Part shown: in pieces, positions 11,818-64,000 of the stretch
How the letters are laid out: every line of letters starts with the position of its first letter
How positions within the stretch are numbered: the first letter of the stretch is position 1
NCBI RefSeq assembly: GCF_053078305.1
Contig: NZ_CP166879.1
Direction: 5' to 3' (one strand)
DNA: 64,000 bases
Notes under the pieces: generated by a model
What the model saw: only the letters and a program-made list of their open reading frames with translations
Told to the model about the DNA's origin: nothing
Databases searched by the model: none
Position numbers and translations under genes: made by a program

Positions 11818-12012
11818 ACGCTTTTCCTTGTGGATCTCAACTCGCCAGCACCTATCTTACATGCCGGTCCGTATCAGAGATACTTTTTGAGTGGCTTTGC
11901 CGGTGATTAAAAATCAAGGTGGGTGTAACGACAAGTTGCAGGCACAAAAAAACCACCCGAAGGTGGTTTCACGACACTGCTTATTGCTTTGATTTTATTC
12001 TTATCTTTCCCA

Positions 12013-12099
12013 TGGTACCCGGAGCGGGACTTGAACCCGCACAGCGCGAACGCCGAGGGATTTTAAATCCCTTGTGTCTACCGATTCCACCATCCGGGC
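12013..12099 (-). tRNA. leuZ: tRNA-Leu
   Basis: 87 nt; reverse complement matches tRNA-Leu with long variable arm and CCA end. Confidence 0.9.
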
Positions 12100-12111
12100 T
12101 CGGGAAGAAAG

Positions 12112-12185
12112 TGGAGGCGCGTTCCGGAGTCGAACCGGACTAGACGGATTTGCAATCCGCTACATAACCGCTTTGTTAACGCGCC
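12112..12185 (-). tRNA. cysT: tRNA-Cys
   Basis: 74 nt; reverse complement GGCGCGTTAACAAAGCGG...CTCCA. Confidence 0.9.
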
Positions 12186-12238
12186 AAATTCTTCAGGCCT
12201 TTCAGCCAGACATCCGCTGACGCCGATGTCTTTTAAAC

Positions 12239-12314
<76 letters not shown>

Positions 12315-44458: not shown

Positions 44459-44530
44459 CTATACTTAAGAGATGCCAGGCGGACTTAACGACTGGCGGCA
44501 ACAACAGAGTAACGGTTGCGAGGAAAGATG

Positions 44531-45038: not shown

Positions 45039-47578
<2,540 letters not shown>

Positions 47579-47639
47579 CCTGCTTTTTTATGATTCTGGC
47601 ATAACCTGGCGATAGCGTACCGCAAAACAGCGATAATTT

Positions 47640-47790
47640 TATAATGGTGGCATGATAAGACGCGACAGACATCGATAGTTTTGTTTTATAACGTAGGCAT
47701 GATAAGACGCGATAGCGTCGCATCAGGCAATTCAGTGCAGACACTGGCACACCCGACCGGATGCGACGTGAGCGCCACATCCGGCCTGGT
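47640..47790. repeat. REP-type extragenic repeats
   Basis: Two direct copies of ggcatgataagacgcga plus gcgtcgcatcaggc and ccggatgcgacg...catccggcc palindromes. Confidence 0.6.
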
Positions 47791-47805
47791 GTTAATGATT
47801 CCCTT

Positions 47806-47988
47806 TCAAACTTCTTCCACAGGACGACTCCCCTCCCCCGGAACAAGCTCGGTTTCATGAAAAGCTTCCCGCTTGACCCCGTAACCGTCATACCAACGAC
47901 ACTCAACCATACCGTTGGAGTATCCAGTGACAATCATCCGCGGGCCGCCCTCTTTAACCGTAACTTCCTCACTAACCATAAAGCTCAT
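47806..47988 (-). CDS. yodC: small protein YodC
   Basis: 60 aa ORF; synteny. Confidence 0.85.
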   Translation of the reverse strand: MSFMVSEEVTVKEGGPRMIVTGYSNGMVECRWYDGYGVKREAFHETELVPGEGSRPVEEV

Positions 47989-48066
47989 ACTCGCCTCCTT
48001 TTTTCGAGTGAAACTTGTTCACCTTAGTTGAAGATGGCGAATTTTGCATAATAGCCTGTGCGAGTA

Positions 48067-48984
48067 TTAATGTGCCTGACCGCGCATTTTCGCTACGGCT
48101 TTCACTCCCAGCACCACGATGCCGCCGATGATAAATCCAAGAATCAGATTTAAAACAGTCGGTAATATCATCGCCACCACTGCACTTTGCTGCCCGGCGA
48201 AATGTTCAATGGCGTGATGCAGCGGCGCAATACCATGTACCACAATCCCGCCGCCGACGAGGAACATCGCCAGCGTGCCGACAATCGATAACGCTTTCAT
48301 CAGCCAGGGCGCGATAATCAATAATCCTTTACCTAATGCCTGCATCAGCGCGCTGGATTTTTCCGCCAGCCAATACCCCAGGTCATCAATCTTAACGATA
48401 ACCCCTACCAGACCGTAGACGCCCACGGTCACTACCAGCGCGATGCCTGAAAGCACCAGCACCTGATTAAGCAACGGCGCTTCGGCCACAATCCCCAGCG
48501 TGATGGCGACGATTTCGGCAGACAATATAAAATCGGTACGAATCGCCCCTTTTATTTTGTCCTTTTCAAACTTCAGCGGATCCTGCGCCGCCAGCTTCTC
48601 CAGACGCTGCTGACTCTGCGCCGGATCTTCTTTATGTTTACGCGCCTCCAGCATATGCAGCACTTTCTCTACCCCTTCAAAGCAGAGAAACGCGCCACCA
48701 ATCATCAACAGAGGCGTAATCGCCCACGGGATAAACGCACTGATGATCAGCGCCAGTGGCACCAGAATCACTTTATTGATCAGCGATCCTTTCGCCACGC
48801 CCCAGACCACGGGAAGTTCCCGGTTTGCCCGCACGCCTGAAACTTGTTGCGCATTGAGCGATAAGTCATCCCCTAATACACCGGCGGTTTTCTTCGCCGC
48901 CAGTTTGCCCATCACGGAGATATCGTCCAGCAGTGTGGCGATATCATCGAGCAACGTCAGTAAACTACTCCCGGCCAAAAGCAT
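48067..48984 (-). CDS. yedI: DUF808 inner membrane protein YedI
   Basis: 305 aa membrane protein. Confidence 0.9.
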
Positions 48985-49157: not shown

Positions 49158-50078
49158 ATGCGTTTCCGCCAGTTATTACCGCTTTTTGGCGCGCTGTTTG
49201 CGTTGTATATCATTTGGGGCTCAACCTATTTTGTCATTCGGATTGGCGTGGAAAGCTGGCCTCCATTAATGATGGCGGGCGTTCGATTCCTGGCAGCCGG
49301 TATTTTATTGCTGGCATTTTTGCTACTGCGCGGACACAAGCTCCCCCCGCTACGTCCGCTGCTCAATGCCGCGCTGATTGGCCTGTTATTGCTGGCTGTC
49401 GGTAATGGCATGGTGACGGTTGCCGAACATCAAAATGTTCCTTCCGGCATCGCCGCCGTAGTGGTTGCAACCGTGCCCCTCTTTACCCTGTGCTTCAGCC
49501 GCCTGTTTGGCATTAAAACGCGCAAACTGGAATGGGTGGGTATTGCCATTGGGCTTGCCGGAATCATCATGCTCAATAGCGGTGGAAATTTAAGCGGCAA
49601 TCCGTGGGGCGCGATTCTGATTTTAATCGGCTCGATTAGCTGGGCGTTTGGCTCAGTTTATGGCTCGCGCATTACCTTACCTGTAGGGATGATGGCGGGT
49701 GCGATTGAGATGCTGGCGGCAGGCGTGGTGTTAATGATCGCGTCGATGATTGCGGGTGAAAAACTGACGGCGCTCCCTTCCCTTTCAGGCTTCCTTGCGG
49801 TCGGCTATCTGGCGCTGTTTGGTTCGATTATCGCCATTAACGCTTATATGTATTTAATCCGCAACGTCAGTCCGGCTCTCGCCACCAGCTACGCCTACGT
49901 TAACCCGGTGGTCGCGGTCTTGCTGGGTACGGGACTGGGTGGAGAAACACTGTCGAAGATTGAATGGCTGGCGCTCGGCGTAATTGTCTTCGCGGTGGTA
50001 CTGGTCACGTTGGGAAAATATCTCTTTCCGGCAAAACCCGTAGTTGCGCCAGTTATTCAGGACGCATCAAGCGAGTAA
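49158..50078 (+). CDS. yedA: EamA-family transporter YedA
   Basis: 306 aa, ten predicted TM helices. Confidence 0.9.
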   Translation: MRFRQLLPLFGALFALYIIWGSTYFVIRIGVESWPPLMMAGVRFLAAGILLLAFLLLRGHKLPPLRPLLNAALIGLLLLAVGNGMVTVAEHQNVPSGIAAVVVATVPLFTLCFSRLFGIKTRKLEWVGIAIGLAGIIMLNSGGNLSGNPWGAILILIGSISWAFGSVYGSRITLPVGMMAGAIEMLAAGVVLMIASMIAGEKLTALPSLSGFLAVGYLALFGSIIAINAYMYLIRNVSPALATSYAYVNPVVAVLLGTGLGGETLSKIEWLALGVIVFAVVLVTLGKYLFPAKPVVAPVIQDASSE

Positions 50079-50537
50079 ATGTATCCCCTGCGTGTCGATC
50101 TGCGCGCTGGCACCTTCGCCGCAGATCCACTCTTCCAGACGCTCGCTAAGCGCTTCATCCGTCAGCTTCTCGCGCCCACGTAACGCGCACTCCCAGACAA
50201 TCAATACGCGCCAGCCGAGTTCCTGCAAGCGACTGATATCGCGGCGATCGCGCTCAACATTTTTACCTATCTTCTCCAGCCAGAACTCGGTTCGAGTCGC
50301 AGGCACTTTAAACAGATAGCAGTGATGATGATGCCAGAAGCAGCCATGGGTAAATATCACGCAGCGATATTCATCAACGACAAAATCCGGGCGTCCGGGC
50401 AGACTGGAGTCCTGAACGCGAAACGCCAGGCCCTGCCCGGTTAACAGACTGGCGAGGCGCTTCTCAATCGCCGTATCACGCGTGGCAATCGCGCGCATAT
50501 TTTTGCTGCGAGTGGCCTTATCGTGAACGTCGGCCAT
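50067..50537 (-). CDS. vsr: very-short-patch repair endonuclease
   Basis: Starts [17 protein letters not shown]; overlaps dcm 3' end. Confidence 0.95.
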
Positions 50538-51936
50538 GTTGTGCCTCTTGCTGACGCAACGCCACCGCCTGTTTGATTTTTGGCTCAAGCAGTTTTGCCA
50601 CCGCGGCAAAGACCGGCACGACCACCGAGTTACCGAACTGGCGATAGGCCTGAGTGTCCGAAACCGGAATACGGAATTTCGCTTCTCCCGGCGCTTCAAA
50701 ACCCATTAAGCGCGCGCATTCCCGAGGCGTTAACCGACGTGGACGATGTTGCTGATTCAGCGGATCGTCAAAGTCTTTCTCACCCGTGGCCATATCCCAG
50801 CCGCGATCGATTAAAATTTCCGCGCCATCTTTGTAATAACGCGCAGACAGCGTACGGGTGACGCTTTGCGGATTGTTCGGATAAACCATTCCATAACCGA
50901 AGCCGTTACCGCGCGCCTGATGTTTTTTCGCATATCGATAGAGGTACTTCCACAGTACCGGCGTCAGGATATATTTCGCCTCGACCATCGGGTCCAGCAG
51001 CTGCGCCAGCGTCACTCGCTGTGCAGGGAAACATTCGCTGATATCACGCAGAGTAAAATCGGCTTTAAGATTCAGATCGCGACGAAAACCCACCAGCACG
51101 ATGCGTTCACGGTGCTGCGGCAGAAAATGTTTACCATCGATGATTTTCGGATCGTCCGGCCCGTTATCTTCTGCATCAGCCACGTCATAGCCCAGTTCGT
51201 CCAGCGTCTGCATGATGATGCGGAACGTTTTACCCTGGTCGTGGCTTTTCAGGTTTTTGACGTTTTCGAGCACAAACATCGCCGGACGACGCGCGTCGAT
51301 AATGCGCACCACATCAAAGAACAGCGTGCCCTGAGTATCGCAGGCAAAACCGTGCGCCCGCCCGAGCGAGTTCTTTTTCGATACGCCAGCCAGCGAAAAT
51401 GGCTGACAAGGGAAACCGGCCAGTAAAACATCGTGTTCAGGAATGTGTTGACGAATATGTTCCGCCGCCGCCTCATCACTCACGCCTTCTTTATGGCTGA
51501 GGGTGATGTCGCGGATATCTTCATTAAAATGATGCGTCGCCGGATCGCAATAATGGTTGGCTTTATAAGTGCGTACCGCATGTTTGTTCCATTCGCTGGT
51601 AAACACGCACTGTCCGCCAATCGATTCAAAACCGCGACGGATGCCGCCAATTCCGGCAAATAGATCGATAAAGCGAAACGCATAATGCGGATGATGTGCC
51701 GGTGGTTTGGGTAACAACGTTTGCAGATGGGCGAACTCTTTCTCACTTAAACGGTGCCATGCCGAGTCATTCGCCAGCGCACGTTTTAAAATTGCCGCGC
51801 TCCAGTGATTCTCACCCACACCATTAAGCTGCGCCACCAGCGTTTTAACATCATAAATTTGCAGCAGTTTCTCCAGCATTGCCTGTGCGGCATTCCCGGT
51901 GCTGTATGAATCGGTTACTGATATATTTTCCTGCAT
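50518..51936 (-). CDS. dcm: DNA-cytosine methyltransferase
   Basis: 472 aa; C5-MTase motifs FAGIGG and PCQ. Confidence 0.95.
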
Positions 51937-52002
51937 AGATTTAACCGGCCATCTGGGATGGTCGACAGGTTAACATAATTACTGCCGTTTAGGGCCACGC
52001 GC

Positions 52003-52698
52003 TCAGCCCGCAGGTGAAAACGCATCTATCACCTTGTGATCGACACCTTCATTCTCCCCCGCCAGTTCGGCACTGAGCTTCGCCATAAACTCGACTAAAA
52101 ATTGCGCGTTGTGCTGCGCCAGCTGCTTGCCTCTTATGGTTTGCATGGTTTGCGGTAGCTTCAGCAACTTAGTCTGGAAATGATCCAGCGCGTAACGTTT
52201 ATCATCAAGCGGGCGATACTGTGCGAACGGATCTTCGCCATCAAACAGCGCCACGCCCAATGCCCCTGAAACGGCAAACACGCGCGCCAGGCCAATCGCC
52301 CCCAGGGCTTCCAGCCGATCCGCATCCTGGACGATTTTAGCTTCCGTTGTTAAGGGGGCGATTTGCGCGCTGAAACTGTGAGCGGCAATGGCATGACAAA
52401 CGGCCTCGATTTTCTCCGCCGGAAATTGCTCGAACTCTTCACGGAGCAGGCGACGCGTCTCTTCTGCCGCCAGAATTGAAGAACGCTGCCGTTGCGGATG
52501 ATTTTTCGCCAGGCTCACAATATCGTGAAAATAACAGGCGGTTAAAATCACCAACATATCGACATCGTCATCTGCCGCCAGCTTCTGTGCCGTAGCCCAG
52601 ACGCGGCGAAAATGACACAAGTCATGGGCCGCGTCCTGGTGCTGATGATGGTTTTTCAACCAGTTTTCGAACTGTGCCTGCCAGTGTTGTAAGTCCAT
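52003..52698 (-). CDS. yedJ: HD-domain phosphohydrolase YedJ
   Basis: HD motif; likely start [10 protein letters not shown]. Confidence 0.85.
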
Positions 52699-52737
52699 AC
52701 GCGCTCCGTTGCCAAAGAGTCGCCACCTTAGCAATTT

Positions 52738-53121
52738 TTATTCATAGCGTCTGCTACGTGCGGGACGAGGTCGGGTGTACCAGGCAATGCTGCCTAACAA
52801 TGCCCCGACCAGAGCCATAAATAAAAATCCGACCAGTGCCCCTAACCACTTTCCCGCGGTAGAGCCTAAATCGCTTTCAAATCCCGACACGGGGGCATCG
52901 GGGATCCGGCTCATCACCCAGATGTAACGCGCCATTGCCCAGACGAAATAGCCACACCATGTATAGAAAGCCCACAATGCCAGTTTGCCGCCAGGGCTGC
53001 GAGAGAGTCTCTCTTCCATCTTTGTAGAACCGTATTCCATTTTGAGATAACCCGGAAAATTCAGACTTAGTACTATTATGTGATAAAAGTCACATTTTTC
53101 CACATTGGATGAGCCAGTCAA
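52738..53121 (-). CDS. yedR: inner membrane protein YedR
   Basis: 127 aa ORF with two TM helices; start uncertain. Confidence 0.8.
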   Translation of the reverse strand: MTGSSNVEKCDFYHIIVLSLNFPGYLKMEYGSTKMEERLSRSPGGKLALWAFYTWCGYFVWAMARYIWVMSRIPDAPVSGFESDLGSTAGKWLGALVGFLFMALVGALLGSIAWYTRPRPARSRRYE

Positions 53122-53267
53122 GACTCACTCATTTTTTGAACAAATAGATAAATTTTGCGCAACGGCAGTGAATACAGGAAAAATCGTTTTGAGCGATTTT
53201 ATTTATCTTTGATATCGGCTTTATTAATTCATTCAATCAATATATTAGCACTGATTACAATTATACC

Positions 53268-53358
53268 TTTTTATTATTCTGTGTCATGATGCTTCCGTTA
53301 TTAGCCTTTTATCGTCTTGTTTATATTTTTTGGGCCGGCATGATGCCGGCTTTTTTTT
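53268..53358 (+). ncRNA. rseX: putative small RNA (RseX-like position) ending at an intrinsic terminator
   Basis: Strong hairpin gggccggcatgatgccggc plus T8 at 53332-53358 in the AT-rich yedR-yedS spacer; 5' end not determined. Confidence 0.35.
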
Positions 53359-53669
53359 ATGCCTTCATTAATGTGCGCGTGATCACACCAGGTGTTTGGC
53401 GCAACAATCATTGATACCCCCTATCTTTCCGCTCAACTCATAACATATTGATATACATTTATAATTTTCATGAATATTTATATTTAGAATTCATAATTAT
53501 GAATTATATTAAATAGATTGGAAACATTTTGAAATCTTTTAAATACATTTGTTACATGTAATCCTTAAAATAAAATGAACTTCATAGAATAGTATCCAAA
53601 TGTGCTTTTTTTTGGATAACGGCACTTATTGATATATTCATGAAGATTATAATCACAAGGGAATACATA

Positions 53670-54857
53670 ATGAAAAGAAAAGTTCTGGCAATGCTGGTCC
53701 CGGCGTTATTAGTTGCTGGCGCAGCAAATGCGGCTGAAGTCTATAATAAAGATGGTAATAAACTGGATTTGTACGGAAAAGTAGCGGGCCTGCACTACTT
53801 CTCTGATGATGCTGGCAGCGATGGCGACATGTCATATGCCCGTATCGGTTTCAAAGGTGAAACTCAGATCGCTGACCAATTCACTGGTTATGGTCAGTGG
53901 GAATTTAACATTGGCGCAAACGGTCCTGAAAGCGACAAGGGTAATACCGCAACGCGTCTGGCATTTGCAGGTTTCGGCTTTGGTCAGAATGGTACTTTCG
54001 ACTATGGTCGTAACTACGGTGTCGTATATGACGTAGAAGCATGGACCGATATGCTGCCAGAATTTGGTGGCGATACCTATGCTGGCGCTGACAACTTCAT
54101 GAACGGTCGTGCTAATGGTGTTGCAACCTACCGTAACAATGGCTTCTTTGGTCAGGTCGATGGCCTGAACTTTGCTCTGCAATATCAGGGTAATAATGAA
54201 GATGATGGATTATTCGGTCAGGAAGGTTCTGGTAACGGTAATGGCCGTAAGTTAGCTAAAGAGAACGGCGACGGCTTCGGTATGTCCACTTCCTATGACT
54301 TCGACTTCGGTTTAAGTCTGGGTGCTGCATATTCTAACTCTGACCGTACCGACAATCAGGTTCACAAAGGTACTCATAACACTCGTTATGGAGATCGCTT
54401 CGATGCAACTGCTGGCGGTGAAACAGCAGAAGCATGGACCGTTGGTGCTAAATACGACGCTAATAACGTTTACTTAGCAGCTATGTATGCTGAAACCCGT
54501 AACATGACTGGTTACGGTGATGCTGATGCCATCGCTAACAAAACCCAAAACTTTGAAGTTGTTGCTCAGTATCAGTTCGACTTTGGTCTGCGCCCGTCCA
54601 TCGCTTACCTGCAATCTAAAGGTAAGGATTTAGGCGGTGTAAATAGTGATAACTTCGACAGCCAGGGTAATCATCACTACACCAACAAAGATCTGGTTAA
54701 ATATGTTGATATTGGTATGACCTACTACTTCAACAAAAACATGTCCACCTATGTTGATTACAAAATCAACCTGCTGGACAACGACGACGACTTCTACAAA
54801 GAAAACGGCATCGCTACCGATGATATCGTTGCTGTGGGCTTAGTCTACCAGTTCTAA
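53670..54857 (+). CDS. yedS: outer membrane porin, OmpC/OmpF family, uninterrupted reading frame
   Basis: Signal peptide [21 protein letters not shown] then [17 protein letters not shown]-terminal VGLVYQF; continuous frame across the full porin length. Confidence 0.85.
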
Positions 54858-54898
54858 TCAGCCAACGCGCCGCGGCGTGTTACTGTAAAACTGAACAC

Positions 54899-54935
54899 TA
54901 GCCTGAGTTCGTCCCTCATCGAACTCAGGCTTTTT
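54899..54935 (+). terminator. rho-independent terminator after yedS
   Basis: Hairpin agcctgagttcg...cgaactcaggct followed by T-run. Confidence 0.7.
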
Positions 54936-55448
54936 TATTGGCATTTCATCTCCATCTGCGGCACACGCAATTGCCGAAGCATATCGATACAGCACCTTAG
55001 CCTGCCCCTCCTGGCACAATAACATCAACCAGCTACTCTTCAAGCTAACACCCAAATGCATTTCTTTATGAATTAATCCGTAACAAACACGCTTCCCATA
55101 TAGAAATATTTGCAAAAATAGTGCATGAAATAAGCTTTTTCTCTACCAATCCGCGATATAAATATTCATCAGCACCACAATATTCCACAGCACTAAATCT
55201 CTCCCCGCCGCCCCGTACCTCTGATAATGGTCTAAAATCATTGAGGCCACTTGCGACGACGTTACTCAATAAGGAAAATTTGGCGTGAATAATATTCAAC
55301 ACCAGTGCAGCATCATCATTACATACTTACACCCGCCGACTACAGCTTTCGATATATTGACTCAATTTTCCAGCCTGGTTAAAAATAGCGACCAGCTCAG
55401 TCGCAAATATAGTGACTACCCTAACTAAGCAACAATAAGGAATACACT

Positions 55449-56300
55449 ATGACTGTTCAAACAAGTAAAAATCCGCAGGTCGATATTGCTGAAGATCATG
55501 CATTCTTCCCTTCAGAATATTCGCTTAGCCAATATACCAGTCCTGTCTCTGATCTTGATGGCGTGGACTATCCAAAACCTTATCGCGGTAAACATAAAAT
55601 TCTGGTGATCGCCGCGGACGAACGTTATTTGCCGACCGATAACGGAAAACTGTTCTCGACCGGTAACCATCCGATTGAAACGTTGCTGCCGTTGTATCAT
55701 CTCCATGCTGCAGGTTTCGAATTCGAAGTGGCGACCATTTCCGGTCTGATGACCAAGTTTGAATACTGGGCTATGCCGCACAAAGATGAAAAAGTAATGC
55801 CATTCTTTGAGCAGCATAAATCGTTGTTCCGCAATCCGAAGAAACTCGCGGATGTTGTCGCCAGCCTCAACGCTGATAGCGAATATGCAGCAATCTTTGT
55901 TCCTGGTGGTCATGGCGCACTTATTGGTTTACCTGAAAGCCAGGACGTAGCTGCCGCTTTACAGTGGGCAATCAAAAATGACCGTTTTGTTATCTCCCTT
56001 TGCCACGGCCCGGCGGCTTTTCTGGCGCTTCGCCACGGCGATAACCCACTGAATGGTTATTCCATTTGCGCATTCCCAGACGCCGCAGACAAACAAACGC
56101 CAGAGATTGGCTATATGCCGGGTCATCTCACCTGGTACTTCGGCGAAGAGCTGAAGAAAATGGGCATGAACATTATTAATGACGACATCACCGGGCGAGT
56201 ACATAAGGACCGTAAAGTTCTCACCGGCGACAGTCCTTTCGCAGCGAATGCGTTGGGTAAACTGGCGGCGCAGGAAATGCTGGCAGCTTACGCGGGTTAA
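55449..56300 (+). CDS. hchA: Hsp31 glyoxalase / protein deglycase
   Basis: 283 aa; DJ-1/PfpI fold. Confidence 0.95.
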   Translation: MTVQTSKNPQVDIAEDHAFFPSEYSLSQYTSPVSDLDGVDYPKPYRGKHKILVIAADERYLPTDNGKLFSTGNHPIETLLPLYHLHAAGFEFEVATISGLMTKFEYWAMPHKDEKVMPFFEQHKSLFRNPKKLADVVASLNADSEYAAIFVPGGHGALIGLPESQDVAAALQWAIKNDRFVISLCHGPAAFLALRHGDNPLNGYSICAFPDAADKQTPEIGYMPGHLTWYFGEELKKMGMNIINDDITGRVHKDRKVLTGDSPFAANALGKLAAQEMLAAYAG

Positions 56301-56407
56301 TCCCTGTTACGTTTGAATGTAAGCGCATAATCAATCGCAGCCGCGTTAGTATTCACGACGTGGCTGCGTTTTTTCACGGTTAATTTATGGCGTACTGAAG
56401 CCCTATG

Positions 56408-57766
56408 TTAATTTCTTTGCGGCAACGTAATCCGGAACACATTATGCTTATTGAGATAGTGATACGTAGCACTTCCCCCATGTAATTCGGCAATCGCTTT
56501 GACTAAAGAAAGGCCTAGTCCCTGACCTACGGAATGACGCGAATTATCTCCCCGCCAAAATCTACGGAAGAGTTTTTCAGGCTCATTAATTTTCGTTCCA
56601 GGGCTGGCGATATCAATATTAAGATAGCTGTTGGTATCAAGAAAACTGGTTATATGAATACGCGATTTTTCTGGCGAATATCGAATAGCGTTAACAATAA
56701 GATTCGATAACATTCGTTGCAGTAAAATTTTATCCGCAAAGATTTGCTGATTGCACTCGACCTTAAAGCAAATCTCTTTCTCGTCTGAAAGATATTCAAG
56801 ATAGTCCAACAAATTTTCGACTTCCTTATTGAGAGAAAGCGAGTCCAGTTTCACCAAAACATTGTTTTTATCTGCCCTGGCAAGAAACAGTATGTTCTCT
56901 GTTAACCGCGAAATATTTTCCAGTTCTTCAATGTTACCGGCAATTGTTTTTTGATATTCAGCGATACTTCTGGTTTGACTGAGCGTAACCTGATTCTGAC
57001 CCAGTAATGCATTAATTGGCGTTCTAAGTTCATGAGCGAGATCGTCAGCAAACTGACTTAGACGCTCAAAATCTTTGACTAAAGCATGATGCATTTTATT
57101 CAACGCCTGCCCAAGAGGTTTTAGTTCTCTCGGTAATGCGCTAACCTCAACAGGCTCCCGGCTATCGTTATAATTCAGCGCTTCCGTTACACCACTCAAC
57201 TTTTTGATCTCTCGTAACCCCGTTCGGATTAACAGCGGACTTAATACTGAGCACAGTATAATGGCGACAATGCAAATTATAATGCTATTGATTTTATACT
57301 GTTCAAGCATGTTATGTCTGGCTGAAGCCAATTTAGCCACAGTAACCGTTAATGATGGCGAAACTTCATCAATATTAATTCGTAAAGCATCTATCTCTGT
57401 ATCATTAATAATGCTTCTGTAAATGCCAGCTGCGCTGATTGTCTCACTAGCAGGTATGTTATTTAACATGCCATCACTGACATTTGTCCGGTTAACAATT
57501 TTATTGATGCTATCACCATGAATGATCAAGATATCCTGACTAACATCCATCATCCGGTTAAAGTACACAGGTAACGTATCTGGATTTACCCCATCAATTA
57601 ACAACTGCTTGATCTGTGCTGTCCGGTTAATGAGTGTTGTATCATCGCGCCATTTCAACTCACTTGCCAGGCCATTATAGAGAGTCCAGACAATTCCGGC
57701 GCCAGCAACAGACAGCAGCAATATAAAAAGCAAGGTTAAACGGACGGTTATAGATAATCTTTTCAT
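56408..57766 (-). CDS. hprS: sensor histidine kinase
   Basis: 452 aa; two TM helices, HAMP, H-box HELRTP, ATPase domain. Confidence 0.9.
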   Translation of the reverse strand: MKRLSITVRLTLLFILLLSVAGAGIVWTLYNGLASELKWRDDTTLINRTAQIKQLLIDGVNPDTLPVYFNRMMDVSQDILIIHGDSINKIVNRTNVSDGMLNNIPASETISAAGIYRSIINDTEIDALRINIDEVSPSLTVTVAKLASARHNMLEQYKINSIIICIVAIILCSVLSPLLIRTGLREIKKLSGVTEALNYNDSREPVEVSALPRELKPLGQALNKMHHALVKDFERLSQFADDLAHELRTPINALLGQNQVTLSQTRSIAEYQKTIAGNIEELENISRLTENILFLARADKNNVLVKLDSLSLNKEVENLLDYLEYLSDEKEICFKVECNQQIFADKILLQRMLSNLIVNAIRYSPEKSRIHITSFLDTNSYLNIDIASPGTKINEPEKLFRRFWRGDNSRHSVGQGLGLSLVKAIAELHGGSATYHYLNKHNVFRITLPQRN

Positions 57767-58437
57767 TATTTTTTTACCGCTACGAATGAATAGCCCATCC
57801 CCCGGATTGTAGCGATTAGCTTCTCAGGAAAAGGATCATCAACTTTTGCGCGGAGCCTGCGAATGGCAACATCCACCGTATTGGTATCACTATCAAAGTT
57901 GATTCCCCAAATTTCACTCGCAATAACCGTTCTGGGTATAATTTCGCCAGCTCTGGAGGCCAGTAGCCAAAGTAACTGAAACTCCTTGCGCGTCAGTGTA
58001 ATACTGATATTGTCCCTGCTCACACTTTGACTAACAGAGTCCATTCTTAAGCCGCTGATTTCTAATGTTGAATTCAAAGCGTGATGTTGCCTTAATTGTG
58101 CCCGAACCCTTGCCAGCAACTCAGAAAATGAAAAAGGTTTTACCAGATAATCATTTGCTCCACTGTCCAGCCCTCTGACTCTGTCATCGACAGAATCCCT
58201 TGCAGTAAGGCAAATAACAGGGGTTTGCTTTGCCGTTCTTAACGTTTGTAAGATCTGCCAGCCATCCATACCCGGAAGCATAATATCCAGAATGATCAAT
58301 GCATAATCATCCTTCAGCGCAAGATAAAGCCCATCTCTGCCATCAGAAACGGCATCAATGACATAACCCGCTTCGGAAAGCCCCTGCGTTACCCACTCCT
58401 GGGTCCTTTGATTATCTTCAATAAGTAAAATCTTCAT
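57766..58437 (-). CDS. hprR: OmpR-family response regulator
   Basis: Likely start MKILLIEDN; overlaps kinase gene. Confidence 0.9.
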   Translation of the reverse strand: MKILLIEDNQRTQEWVTQGLSEAGYVIDAVSDGRDGLYLALKDDYALIILDIMLPGMDGWQILQTLRTAKQTPVICLTARDSVDDRVRGLDSGANDYLVKPFSFSELLARVRAQLRQHHALNSTLEISGLRMDSVSQSVSRDNISITLTRKEFQLLWLLASRAGEIIPRTVIASEIWGINFDSDTNTVDVAIRRLRAKVDDPFPEKLIATIRGMGYSFVAVKK

Positions 58438-58569
58438 GAAAATAATATGCCATAAATCATATGTTATAGAAACAGCCTGGTTCATTACAAAATTGTAATG
58501 CTGCTGTAAGGTTACCCTGGACGCTTTTTCGCTATCCTCAAAACTCATTCACATGACAAGGATATAAAC

Positions 58570-58983
58570 ATGTTAAAGCGTTATTTAGTACTCTCGGTAG
58601 CAACGGCAGCATTTTCATTACCTTCTTTGGTTAATGCCGCACAACAAAACATTCTTAGCGTGCACATTTTGAACCAGCAAACAGGAAAACCCGCTGCTGA
58701 CGTGACAGTCACTCTTGAAAAGAAGGCGGATAACGGCTGGTTACAACTTAATACCGCCAAAACAGATAAGGATGGACGAATTAAGGCACTGTGGCCCGAG
58801 CAAACTGCAACTACGGGCGATTACCGTGTCGTATTTAAAACCGGGGACTATTTCAAGAAACAAAATCTTGAAAGTTTCTTCCCTGAGATCCCCGTTGAAT
58901 TTCATATTAATAAAGTGAACGAGCATTATCATGTGCCTTTATTACTTAGCCAATATGGGTATTCAACCTATCGTGGCAGTTAA
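58570..58983 (+). CDS. hiuH: 5-hydroxyisourate hydrolase (transthyretin-like)
   Basis: 137 aa with signal peptide; C-terminal YRGS. Confidence 0.9.
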
Positions 58984-59085
58984 TGCATAAATATGTAAAA
59001 GCAGATCTCTGCTACTGTTAGGGAGGACACTCCCTGACAGATTAACAGTAAACGGCTCTTGCTGGCTAACGACAAAAAAGTGTGA

Positions 59086-60096
<1,011 letters not shown>

Positions 60097-60732
60097 ATGC
60101 GTCTGACAGCAAAACAGGTGACATGGCTGAAAGTTTGCCTGCATCTTGCCGGATTGTTGCCGTTTCTCTGGCTGGTCTGGGCGATCAATCACGGTGGACT
60201 GGGTGCCGATCCGGTGAAAGATATTCAGCATTTTACCGGTCGCACTGCACTGAAATTTTTGCTGGCGACCTTGTTAATCACACCTCTGGCACGCTACGCA
60301 AAACAGCCGTTATTGATACGCACTCGCCGCCTGTTAGGCTTATGGTGCTTTGCCTGGGCGACACTGCATTTAACCAGTTACGCATTGCTGGAGCTGGGCG
60401 TGAATAATCTGGCGTTATTAGGCAAGGAGTTAATTACCCGGCCTTATTTAACGTTAGGAATTATCAGCTGGGTTATTTTGCTTGCTTTAGCGTTTACTTC
60501 AACCCAGGCGATGCAGCGAAAACTCGGCAAGCACTGGCAACAGTTGCATAATTTCGTCTATCTTGTCGCGATCCTGACCCCAATACATTATCTGTGGTCA
60601 GTGAAGATTATTTCACCGCAGCCGCTCATCTACGCTGGGCTGGCTGTACTGCTTTTAGCCTTACGGTATAAGAAGTTGCGTTCCCTTTTTAACCGGTTAC
60701 GCAAGCAGGTTCACAACAAATTATCTGTATAA
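60097..60732 (+). CDS. msrQ: methionine sulfoxide reductase heme-binding membrane subunit
   Basis: 211 aa membrane protein immediately after msrP. Confidence 0.95.
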
Positions 60733-60744
60733 CTTCATATTGCC

Positions 60745-60830
60745 GACAAAGTACGCGTTATCCCTGCCGGATGTGGCGCGAGCGCCCTATCCGGCCTACG
60801 CAGATCACATCAGGTTATGTTTCGTTTGTC
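60745..60830. repeat. REP element
   Basis: gccggatgtggcgcgagcgccctatccggcctacg palindromic unit. Confidence 0.6.
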
Positions 60831-60933
60831 ATCAACCTCAAATTATCAACATAATTCATTTTATTTCAATAAGATAGATAAGTACACCTGAGAAAACTAT
60901 GCTCTCATCTCCTAAGAGTTGTTGCATTTTGTC

Positions 60934-60954
60934 ATATGTTACAATATAACATTA
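60934..60954. promoter_or_regulatory. Zur box upstream of zinT
   Basis: Near-palindrome atgttacaatataacat in the AT-rich promoter region. Confidence 0.55.
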
Positions 60955-60967
60955 CACATCATATACA

Positions 60968-61639
60968 ATGACTCTGGAGGAAACTGTTTTGGCGATTCGT
61001 CTTCACAAACTGGCTGTTGCTTTAGGTGTCTTTATTGTTAGCGCTCCTGCCTTTTCGCATGGTCATCACTCACACGGCAAACCCTTAACAGAGGTCGAAC
61101 AAAAAGCTGCTAATGGTGTTTTTGATGATGCCAATGTACAAAACCGAACGCTCAGTGACTGGGATGGAGTCTGGCAATCCGTTTATCCTTTACTGCAAAG
61201 TGGCAAACTTGACCCCGTCTTTCAGAAGAAAGCGGATGCAGATAAAACTAAAACATTTGCTGAAATTAAAGATTATTATCACAAAGGTTATGCAACAGAT
61301 ATCGAGATGATTGGCATTGAGGACGGCATTGTTGAATTCCATAGAAATAATGAAACAACATCCTGTAAATATGATTACGATGGATACAAAATACTCACCT
61401 ATAAATCAGGCAAGAAAGGCGTTCGTTACTTATTCGAATGTAAAGATCCTGAAAGCAAAGCCCCTAAATATATACAATTTAGCGATCATATAATTGCACC
61501 ACGAAAATCATCTCATTTTCACATTTTTATGGGTAATGATTCACAGCAATCTTTATTAAATGAAATGGAAAACTGGCCAACGTATTATCCATATCAGTTG
61601 AGTAGCGAAGAAGTGGTCGAGGAAATGATGTCTCATTGA
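60968..61639 (+). CDS. zinT: periplasmic zinc/metal-binding protein
   Basis: Signal peptide then His-rich [12 protein letters not shown]; exact start codon uncertain. Confidence 0.9.
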
Positions 61640-61981
61640 GTATTCTCATGATAACGCCTCGATGCCGCTTTAGTAAGTCATCATAACTGCCACTGGTCCA
61701 TCCACAAACGCCACTGAACGCAAGCTAGCTACAGACACGCTCATCACTATGACGTGTCTGTATATTAATAAGCTAACCCGCATTGAGTTAACCAATAACG
61801 GATTCCATACATAATACGGCCAACAGAGAAAGATACCTGTGCTCACGCCATTGCTTATATTGGCTGGTTACAATGTGCACTATCAATTTTTTAAATAACA
61901 AATTCTTAAAACCACATCTGTATAAGGAATTTTTAAGGTTCGTGGGATAGCTTGACTGTGAAAATCACAGGAGCTACAAAA

Positions 61982-62512
61982 ATGAACCGATTCTCAAAAA
62001 CTCAAATTTATTTACATTGGATAACGCTGCTTTTCGTTGCAATAACCTATGCCGCGATGGAACTCCGTGGCTGGTTTCCTAAAGGTAGTAGTACTTATCT
62101 GCTAATGCGAGAAACACATTACAATGCGGGTATATTCGTTTGGGTGTTAATGTTTTCACGCCTGATTATAAAACACCGTTATAGTGATCCTTCTATTGTG
62201 CCACCGCCACCTGCCTGGCAAATGAAAGCGGCTTCGCTAATGCACATCATGCTTTATATAACCTTCCTTGCACTTCCTCTGCTGGGGATTGCTTTGATGG
62301 CTTACAGTGGAAAATCGTGGAGTTTCCTTGGTTTCAATGTGTCTCCCTTTGTTACCCCAAACAGCGAAATTAAAGCACTGATAAAAAATATTCACGAAAC
62401 CTGGGCAAATATAGGCTACTTTTTAATCGCAGCTCACGCTGGCGCAGCACTCTTTCATCACTACATTCAGAAAGATAATACTCTGTTACGAATGATGCCT
62501 CGCCGCAAATAA
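61982..62512 (+). CDS. yodB: cytochrome b561 family protein
   Basis: Starts MNRFSKTQIYLHWIT; four TM helices with conserved His. Confidence 0.9.
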   Translation: MNRFSKTQIYLHWITLLFVAITYAAMELRGWFPKGSSTYLLMRETHYNAGIFVWVLMFSRLIIKHRYSDPSIVPPPPAWQMKAASLMHIMLYITFLALPLLGIALMAYSGKSWSFLGFNVSPFVTPNSEIKALIKNIHETWANIGYFLIAAHAGAALFHHYIQKDNTLLRMMPRRK

Positions 62513-63070
62513 GTCGATCCCCTGACAAGGAAATGTGAACCATGGACATCAACGCGTCATAAATGTTTACGCAAGTGCACAATGCACCCTTTCCACTATC
62601 AACAAGGAGGAGCAGAAACTGTGTAAATCGTACAATGGTAAGACTTATCAAAAATACAGGTTAATTTTGGTATTTAAACCTTTTTTACTTGTTAGTATGA
62701 TACAAAGGCTTTCAAAAAAGCTGGGAAATTCAACAACTCTTGGAAATTATGGACTTTGTCCCGCGGCTTTAATCTGACGGCCGCGTTCCTTTTTTGACTC
62801 AATTATTGACCCCTTCTCTACGCAACTTCGGTTCCCACCACCAACTTTGCGGCAGTTTCATAGGATGAATGTCTAAAAGAATAATGGTGAGCGATAAGAA
62901 AACGACTGAATAACTGCACATTTTCGCTCGAAAGCTTCCTGTCAGATCCATAGCGAATCAAGTGCTGAATGTCACAGTATCGAACAGAAAACAGTGACGA
63001 TCTAACCCTTCAAGAATATTCTACGATTGTTCTGTTTAGGAAAAGCAAGGCGGGAAGTCGGGAGATAAGT

Positions 63071-63131
63071 CATTGATAAAGTGGCGGAGAGAGGGGGATT
63101 TGAACCCCCGGTAGAGTTGCCCCTACTCCGG
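63071..63131 (-). pseudogene. tRNA-Ser (serU-type) 3' fragment, 5'-truncated; probable integration-site core copy
   Basis: Reverse complement matches tRNA-Ser from the anticodon arm through T-arm, acceptor 3' strand and CCA; similarity stops after ...ttttcgagacc at 63131. Confidence 0.75.
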
Positions 63132-63352
63132 TTTTCGAGACCGATGATACCGAACCGTAAAATCAAAAGGTTATAAATTTTTCTTGGAATAAATGTCTTA
63201 AAAACATACACGCAAAATCAATAAATTACGCGAAATTTGAGAAGAATATTCCAAGCCTTCTTTGAGTTATTTTTAACCATCTTGCTGTTTTTCTTTCTGA
63301 TAAAATATTGCCTGATATCCCTTAACATTACTAATACTTGCGTAGTGAATGT

Positions 63353-63682
63353 ATGAACAATCCGAATCCATGCATGACGTGTGGTGCCTGTTGTGCATTT
63401 TTCCGCGTCTCTTTTTACTGGGCTGAAGCCGATGATGCTGGCGGTACTATTCCCGCCAGGCTCACTGAACAAATATCCCCTTTTCACCGATGCATGAGCG
63501 GTACCAATCAGAAAAACCCCCGATGTGTCGCTCTGGCGGGAACTCCGGGTAAAAACGCATATTGCTCTGTTTACAAAAACCGTCCGTCCACATGCCGGGA
63601 ATTCGCAATGTCCGGAGAAAATGGCATCGCGAATGATGCATGCAACCGCGCACGGGCAAAATACGGACTTCCGGAAATCTGA
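63353..63682 (+). CDS. YkgJ-family (UPF0153) cysteine-cluster protein
   Basis: [21 protein letters not shown]... with CxxCxxCC and later Cys motifs; lies beyond the tRNA fragment. Confidence 0.6.
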
Positions 63683-63810
63683 AAATTATCCATATCAACA
63701 GAGTGCTCCTGAAACAAGATCAGCATCACGTACAGAATTAACATTTCCGTGGCAGTATTCGTCCGGCATAGTGTATACCTTCACAATAATGACATAATCA
63801 ACGCAGTTCA

Positions 63811-63840
63811 TGGGGGAGGTGATGGTCCCCCATCTTTTTG
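63811..63840 (+). terminator. rho-independent terminator
   Basis: Hairpin gggggaggtgatggtccccc followed by tcttttt. Confidence 0.55.
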
Positions 63841-63845
63841 TCTGT

Positions 63846-64000
63846 TATTCCTGTGCCCAGCCAACCCTGTATGCCAGTATCTCATCCGCACTGGTCAGCT
63901 TTTCCAGCTCCTTCTTCATGGTGCGCTGCCGGACGTGGATTTCCATCCCTTTGGTGAACATCGCCTGCTCTGCCGCTTCACTCAGCGCTATAAGCTCTTC
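63846..64000 (-). CDS. hypothetical protein, C-terminal part only (5' end beyond window)
   Basis: Open frame to the window edge ending ...KLTSADEILAYRVGWAQE then stop at 63846-63848. Confidence 0.4.

Follow-up and report, generated by a model that had tools for sequence, protein, structure and literature searches.

At the right end of a 64,000-nt stretch of DNA (contig NZ_CP166879.1 of RefSeq assembly GCF_053078305.1; this whole stretch is referred to as the window), the chromosome carries what looks like a serine tRNA gene deprived of its 5' part. Such a locus raises the question of whether the segment is a damaged gene or the trace of an integration event and, if the latter, what kind of element was inserted. 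The original prediction took it for the core-site copy left at the distal end of an integrase-mediated island, the intact tRNA gene and the integrase being expected at the other end.

A truncated serU copy beside yodB

The genes hiuH, msrP, msrQ, zinT, and yodB (61952-62512) succeed one another towards the right end of the window and are followed by a 569-nt intergenic stretch and then by a tRNA-like segment, whose minus strand reads CGGTCTCGAAAACCGGAGTAGGGGCAACTCTACCGGGGGTTCAAATCCCCCTCTCTCCGCCA. When compared to the intact serU gene of E. coli ECNB21-M121, this segment reproduces without mismatch the final 62 nt (positions 29-90) of the 90-nt tRNA-Ser(CGA), and the very next base is a mismatch. 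The missing 5' 28 nt correspond to the 5' strand of the acceptor stem, the D arm, and the first base of the anticodon stem. Since an exact match of 60 nt to the annotated tRNA-Ser of K-12 and of thousands of other genomes has an E value of 5e-22, the resemblance is not due to chance. The original prediction was thus right in recognizing that only the 3' part of serU (about 61 nt) is present and that it ends abruptly, while its coordinates need correction: the fragment does not span 63071-63131 but 63082-63143, i.e., they were 11-12 nt too low and 1 nt short, and the abrupt end placed at 63131 lies in fact at 63143, where homology to the empty site stops (see below).

No functional tRNA-Ser is encoded at this position. 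ARAGORN called no tRNA over 62500-64000, and hence no intact tRNA-Ser on re-examination of the site, and over the whole window it found only tRNA-Leu, tRNA-Cys, and tRNA-Gly, at 12013-12314. Likewise, a search of 62500-64000 against Rfam returned no tRNA match and only sub-threshold hits, the best of them to Plastid-psbl-rps4 (40.9 bits for a gathering score of 68), with weaker ones to sX4 and to the T arm of tmRNA, this last being short and far below the gathering score; these are read as an echo of the tRNA-like sequence rather than as separate RNAs. A functional tRNA-Ser requires a complete cloverleaf with its acceptor stem and D arm, which the fragment lacks as its 5' 28 nt are gone. The 62-nt segment is instead the att identity block (the core "O") of an attR site, non-functional as a tRNA, and it carries the native A48-U59 allele that is expected of a displaced chromosomal 3' half. 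GenBank KU052038 lists an identical 62-nt feature, also located beside yodB, under the annotation pseudo tRNA-Ser. In annotation, the piece should accordingly be labeled as attR or pseudo-tRNA, and not as a damaged gene.

The chromosomal flank and the insertion breakpoint

To the left of the junction, the window is ordinary E. coli chromosome (Table 1). Several E. coli chromosomes match it at 99.9% identity between 56000 and 63000, among them that of ECNB21-M121, in which the site is unoccupied and the order of genes is yodB, intact serU, mtfA, and asnT. BLAST comparison with this genome gives 99.84% identity over 61901-63143 and 99.26% over 50000-63143. The homology to the empty site runs without interruption up to 63143 and stops exactly there, at the 5' edge of the fragment, so that 63143/63144 is the true insertion breakpoint inside serU.

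Table 1. Features on either side of the serU junction (coordinates are those of the window).
Feature	Position	Strand	Remarks
Chromosomal flank B'	62513..63081		intergenic DNA between yodB and serU, past the 3' end of the tRNA; native E. coli backbone, contiguous homology to ECNB21-M121
serU 3' fragment, att identity block	63082..63143	-	
Element-side arm of attR (P arm), 119 nt	63144..63262		conserved among serU-integrated prophages
YkgJ-family CxxCxxCC gene, 109 aa	63353..63682	+	Pfam PF03692, E 2.2e-12
Putative terminator-like GC-rich hairpin and T run	63810..63833	+	consensus scan only; separates ykgJ from DUF4376, which converge on it
Phage tail-fibre protein (DUF4376), last 51 codons and stop	63845..64000	-	cut by the end of the window

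The same comparison brought up two other differences between the window and ECNB21-M121. At the leuZ tRNA-Leu gene (12013-12099; region 11936-12100), the site is unoccupied in the window, and ECNB21-M121 has there an island of about 8.6 kb with a site-specific integrase. In addition, the central region of fliC (22562-23323) has no megablast match in ECNB21-M121 and the adjoining fliD-yedK stretch (23323-30736) is only 92% identical, a divergence suggestive of another H-antigen allele and of recombination in this segment.

The element side of the junction

Everything that can be seen of the element within the window is its last 857 nt, which start with an arm that has 88-100% identity to its counterparts in KY171, SerU-LTIIb, CFIAFB20120266, and others. 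Beyond it lie the two genes that the original prediction had noticed, a YkgJ-family gene and a partial open reading frame on the minus strand, and both were recovered. The match of the first to PF03692 involves residues 6-98 of the protein and all 85 positions of the model (1-85), i.e., the whole cysteine-cluster domain; neither PHROGs nor NCBIfam provided a family match for it. The second is the end of a 223-aa DUF4376 tail-fibre protein, whose complete reading frame is found in the draft locus L007 (99.9% identical to the window over 63082-64000; C-terminal end ...EELIALSEAAEQAMFTKGMEIHVRQRTMKKELEKLTSADEILAYRVGWAQE) and which matches Pfam PF14301 and PHROG 11571, "tail fiber protein", with an E value of 8e-150. 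In L007 and in a second near-identical locus, L008, the next gene is a collagen-repeat tail-fibre gene (Pfam Collagen in both, and also Phage_fiber_2 in L007). The genes directly inside the junction are thus phage genes, namely the DUF4376/PHROG 11571 tail fibre and then, in these near-identical loci, the collagen-repeat gene. Three elements of the reading are shown directly, namely the tRNA fragment, the precise breakpoint, and the phage nature of the right flank.

At least 23 E. coli draft contigs encode the exact YkgJ protein, with the same context in nine of ten among them. Ten draft loci were retrieved, which have 99.6-99.9% identity to the window over 63082-64000, and in those of sufficient length the truncated gene proves to be the one for the 223-aa DUF4376 protein. 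All contigs with this exact protein end inside the tail-fibre genes, at most 1.65 kb past ykgJ. Repeats that are common to lambdoid prophages would be expected to break short-read assemblies.

The ykgJ gene is cargo (a "moron") in a slot that lies between the tail-fibre genes and attR. The content of this slot, from the side-tail-fibre genes to attR, is variable: it holds ykgJ in the window, espJ-tccP in O157:H7 (46690-48390 of locus L022), and ykgJ together with a gene for a YadA C-terminal domain in CFIAFB20120266, and it is empty in SerU-LTIIb. Neither espJ nor tccP is present in the slot of the window. Sequences that are 80-90% identical to ykgJ occur in about 5000 of the 5426 complete E. 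coli genomes and are taken to be the presumed chromosomal ykgJ paralogue. That the prophage copy acts as a lysogenic-conversion or phage-defence factor with a phenotype for the host, or that the body of this serU prophage carries some unusual cargo, seems quite improbable.

The far end of the element in complete relatives

The window stops at 64000, and the opposite end of the element was looked for in complete genomes with a serU junction, of which three were examined. In JNEC-KY171 (KY171 hereafter), the order is yodB, the fragment, YkgJ, DUF4376, the tail genes of a lambdoid prophage and the rest of that prophage, a DUF4224 gene, a gene for a 341-aa tyrosine integrase, an intact tRNA-Ser gene, mtfA, asnT, and yeeJ, the distance from core to core being 54,789 bp. 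STEC1585 displays the same layout with a core-to-core distance of 44,525 bp, and so does O157:H7 LSU61, except that espJ-tccP lies there between the tail fibres and the fragment instead of ykgJ. A tyrosine integrase, an intact serU, and mtfA were consequently found at the far end in all three. The fragment and the intact serU are in direct orientation in these complete relatives and form an imperfect repeat of about 78 nt with 91% identity. A serU prophage described in strain SE11, PP_SE11-6, is 47.6 kb long and flanked by a 77-nt duplication (PMC2608844), with which the repeat of about 78 nt in KY171 and STEC1585 agrees.

KY171 and STEC1585 share with the window the order of fragment, YkgJ, and DUF4376, but the end of their element is only 93-96% identical to that of the window, and these are the best matches: the exact variant had no match among complete E. 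coli genomes. The head and tail modules of the serU prophages of KY171 and STEC1585 and of PP_SE11-6 also differ among themselves, as expected for mosaic lambdoid phages.

It is thus in the relatives that the integrase, the intact serU, and a prophage of 45-55 kb are seen at the far end, as is the crossover interval discussed below, and by analogy with them the strain of the window probably has the same far end, with an integrase, a rebuilt serU, and a prophage body. With regard to the original prediction, the intact tRNA gene and the integrase that it placed at the other end are borne out in KY171, STEC1585, and LSU61, the window itself ending before that point. Integrase-mediated insertion likewise stands, while the generic "island" has to give way to a lambdoid prophage, or at least to its tail-fibre end. 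Reference genomes showing the same fragment and the same neighboring genes without mobility genes would have spoken for another origin, but an integrase was present in each of the three examined. Comparison of the yodB-serU-mtfA locus with references, which had been proposed as a check, identified ECNB21-M121 as an empty site and allowed the insertion to be sized at 44,525 and 54,789 bp, these being sizes in the relatives only.

A model for integration into serU

Altogether, the 62-nt block is very probably the attR of a lambdoid prophage that a tyrosine integrase inserted into serU, the gene for tRNA-Ser(CGA), according to the Campbell model. In this scheme, the attP of the phage would have its own copy of tRNA positions 29-90, and strand exchange would take place within the anticodon stem-loop, joining the chromosomal 5' 28 nt to the 3' half borne by the phage. 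The exchange would thereby rebuild a functional serU beside the integrase gene, on the mtfA side and beyond the end of the window, and would displace the original 62 nt of the chromosomal 3' half to the opposite end of the prophage, beside yodB, where they would form the fragment of the window. All that lies rightwards from 63144 would then be prophage, i.e., the P arm, the YkgJ-family cargo gene, and the tail-fibre module.

A polymorphism in the variable-arm stem of the tRNA allows the two halves to be followed. The intact serU on the integrase side has G48-C59 in the three lysogens (L002 7780-7869, L017 4388-4477, and L022 4592-4681), whereas A48-U59 is found in the fragment of the window, in the yodB-side fragments of its relatives, and in all serU genes examined at empty sites. 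The change is compensatory, as an A-U pair is replaced by a G-C pair. The presence of G48-C59 in the rebuilt serU therefore implies that its 3' half was supplied by the phage, and the 48/59 polymorphism sets the limits of the crossover at tRNA positions 29-47, an interval that contains the anticodon loop. An anticodon-loop class of tRNA integration sites is reported to have been described by Williams (Nucleic Acids Research, 2002); the window agrees with this class in that the identity block extends from the anticodon stem to the 3' end of the tRNA and that a crossover within 29-47 fits. The rebuilt serU of STEC1585 has, in addition, an A instead of a G at the discriminator position (…CTCTCCACCA), and this change might influence serylation.

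A short motif, TTGGAAT, is also concentrated near the att sites. The arm present in the window has two of them in inverted orientation, at 63184-63190 (plus strand) and 63248-63254 (minus strand), out of seven in the whole 64-kb window (0.11 per kb), and each of the three complete genomes has three direct copies, spaced by 10-13 nt, next to its integrase gene (e.g., L002 7916-7945). Judging from their sequence and arrangement, these motifs are candidate arm-type sites for the integrase.

Other explanations for the junction

The window could in principle hold only a remnant of such a prophage, most of which, perhaps with the integrase or even the rebuilt serU, would have been deleted, leaving the tail-fibre end and ykgJ. 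Decay of this kind has precedents, as frequent replacements and deletions were reported for serU prophages (PMC7067040); in LSU61 the integrase is frameshifted and several pseudogenes are present, and the tail-fibre genes of KY171 are fragmented. However, the prophage and the intact serU have been kept in all three complete genomes, over 44.5-54.8 kb in KY171 and STEC1585, the ykgJ reading frame is intact in the window, and so is that of DUF4376 in the near-identical contigs. A decayed remnant is thus regarded as unlikely.

The two remaining possibilities dispense with a prophage altogether, and both are very unlikely because of the tail-fibre genes and of the recurrence of an identical breakpoint. 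According to one of them, the fragment would border a genomic island of non-phage origin, for instance the 27-kb TcpC island of B2 ExPEC; serU is indeed also host to a non-phage pathogenicity island (PMC5521745) and non-phage elements in tandem are seen at serU in L012 and CFIAFB20120266, but phage tail-fibre genes lie directly inside the junction and the arm at 63144-63262 is the one common to lambdoid serU prophages, which leaves this origin very little probability. According to the other, serU would have been cut by an unrelated deletion, by insertion of an IS, or by an assembly error, its likeness to an att site being coincidental. No point in support of such an accident was found. Loss of serU would probably be tolerable, since another tRNA-Ser can read UCG. 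The breakpoint falls at the identical nucleotide in 1096 genomes, and the tRNA homology of the attP of phage ST64B starts at this very position; no IS sequence abuts the fragment, and assemblies made independently show the same junction. A breakpoint that recurs identically, and next to phage DNA, speaks against an accidental truncation, which can be considered effectively refuted.

Relationship to known phages and prophages

Among named prophages, the closest parallel to the preferred reading, an attR in serU, is provided by CP-933U/Sp14, to which the effector genes espJ and tccP were assigned (PMC2344115). In LSU61, this prophage occupies the same site in the same orientation, with mtfA, intact serU, tyrosine integrase, DUF4224, lambdoid genome, tail fibres, cargo slot, fragment, and yodB in this order, and its junction is about 85% identical to that of the window. 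The two differ in the slot next to attR, which contains the type III secretion effector genes espJ and tccP in CP-933U/Sp14 and the YkgJ-family and DUF4376 tail-fibre genes in the window. The window thus has the placement of CP-933U/Sp14, in serU and with the tail-fibre end towards yodB, and lacks its espJ-tccP cargo, and the identification of the junction as the attR of a CP-933U/Sp14-like lambdoid prophage at serU is supported.

SerU-LTIIb (KU052038), a prophage encoding the LT-IIb enterotoxin, has a yodB flank that is 99.8% identical to that of the window and an arm that is 91% identical over 178 nt. Unlike in the window, the side-tail-fibre genes directly follow the arm, eltIIbAB is present, and there is no ykgJ. 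A more distant case is the Salmonella phage ST64B, whose virion genome contains a true attP beside the integrase gene, with tRNA-Ser homology that runs from the same position 29 to the CCA end, which provides independent support for the integration model. The annotation of its integrase notes a similarity to the CP-933U enzyme, and the gene has about 68% nucleotide identity to the KY171 integrase region, over half of the query. In contrast to the window, ST64B has arms that cannot be aligned, no TTGGAAT motif, and the Salmonella allele of serU.

A virion genome of a free E. coli phage with this attP was looked for and not found; records labeled "phage" that bear the arm are prophage predictions with host flank or phages with a lambda Int that carry the junction as a fossil. 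One of them, vB_EcoS-689R5, was considered as a source of a free-phage attP and rejected, as its record includes host mtfA and asnT and hence represents a prophage attL. An exact-match scan of viral contigs with window positions 63690-63724 gave no matches.

The lambda-like phages ev099, mEp332, and PhiR70_1 have in common with the window a 459-nt block that corresponds to 62804-63262 (L005 3223-3681 in ev099 and L004 2051-2509 in mEp332). Of this block, 278 nt (window 62804-63081) are E. coli chromosomal sequence that follows the 3' end of serU, with 93-96% identity; the block is located in the b region, where it is flanked by an AraC-like gene and a tail-fibre assembly gene. The possibility that it serves as the attP of ev099 and mEp332 was rejected, since ev099 has the lambda Int and, beside int, the lambda attP core GCTTTTTTATACTAA. 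Containing these 278 nt of chromosome, the block is a fossil serU attR with captured host DNA, carried as a passenger.

serU as an integration hotspot

Out of 5426 complete E. coli genomes, 1096 covered at least 80% of a 120-nt probe spanning the junction; in most of the remaining ones, only the tRNA half of the probe matched, inside an annotated intact tRNA-Ser. The site is known to accommodate lambda-like prophages (PMC2608844), Stx phages (PMC8065619), and the effector-carrying prophages of O145:H28, for which replacements and deletions are frequent (PMC7067040), as well as the 27-kb non-phage TcpC "serU island" of phylogroup B2 ExPEC (PMC5521745). The truncated tRNA-Ser of the window is therefore a routine and already known junction at a long-known integration hotspot of E. 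coli. In practical terms, the right end of the window lies 857 nt within a lambdoid prophage at serU, which matters little outside annotation: the functional serU is to be sought 45-55 kb further on, beside mtfA, and the part of the prophage that lies beyond 64000 could bear on pathotyping of the strain.

Finally, a second element that does not look like a prophage, with DUF6387, AlpA, H-NS-like, and RepL-like genes, is present on the yodB side of the fragment in L012 (8200-9791) and in CFIAFB20120266 (L018 1-830), which indicates that serU is open to tandem occupation. In L012, the middle fragment carries the phage-type G48-C59 allele.
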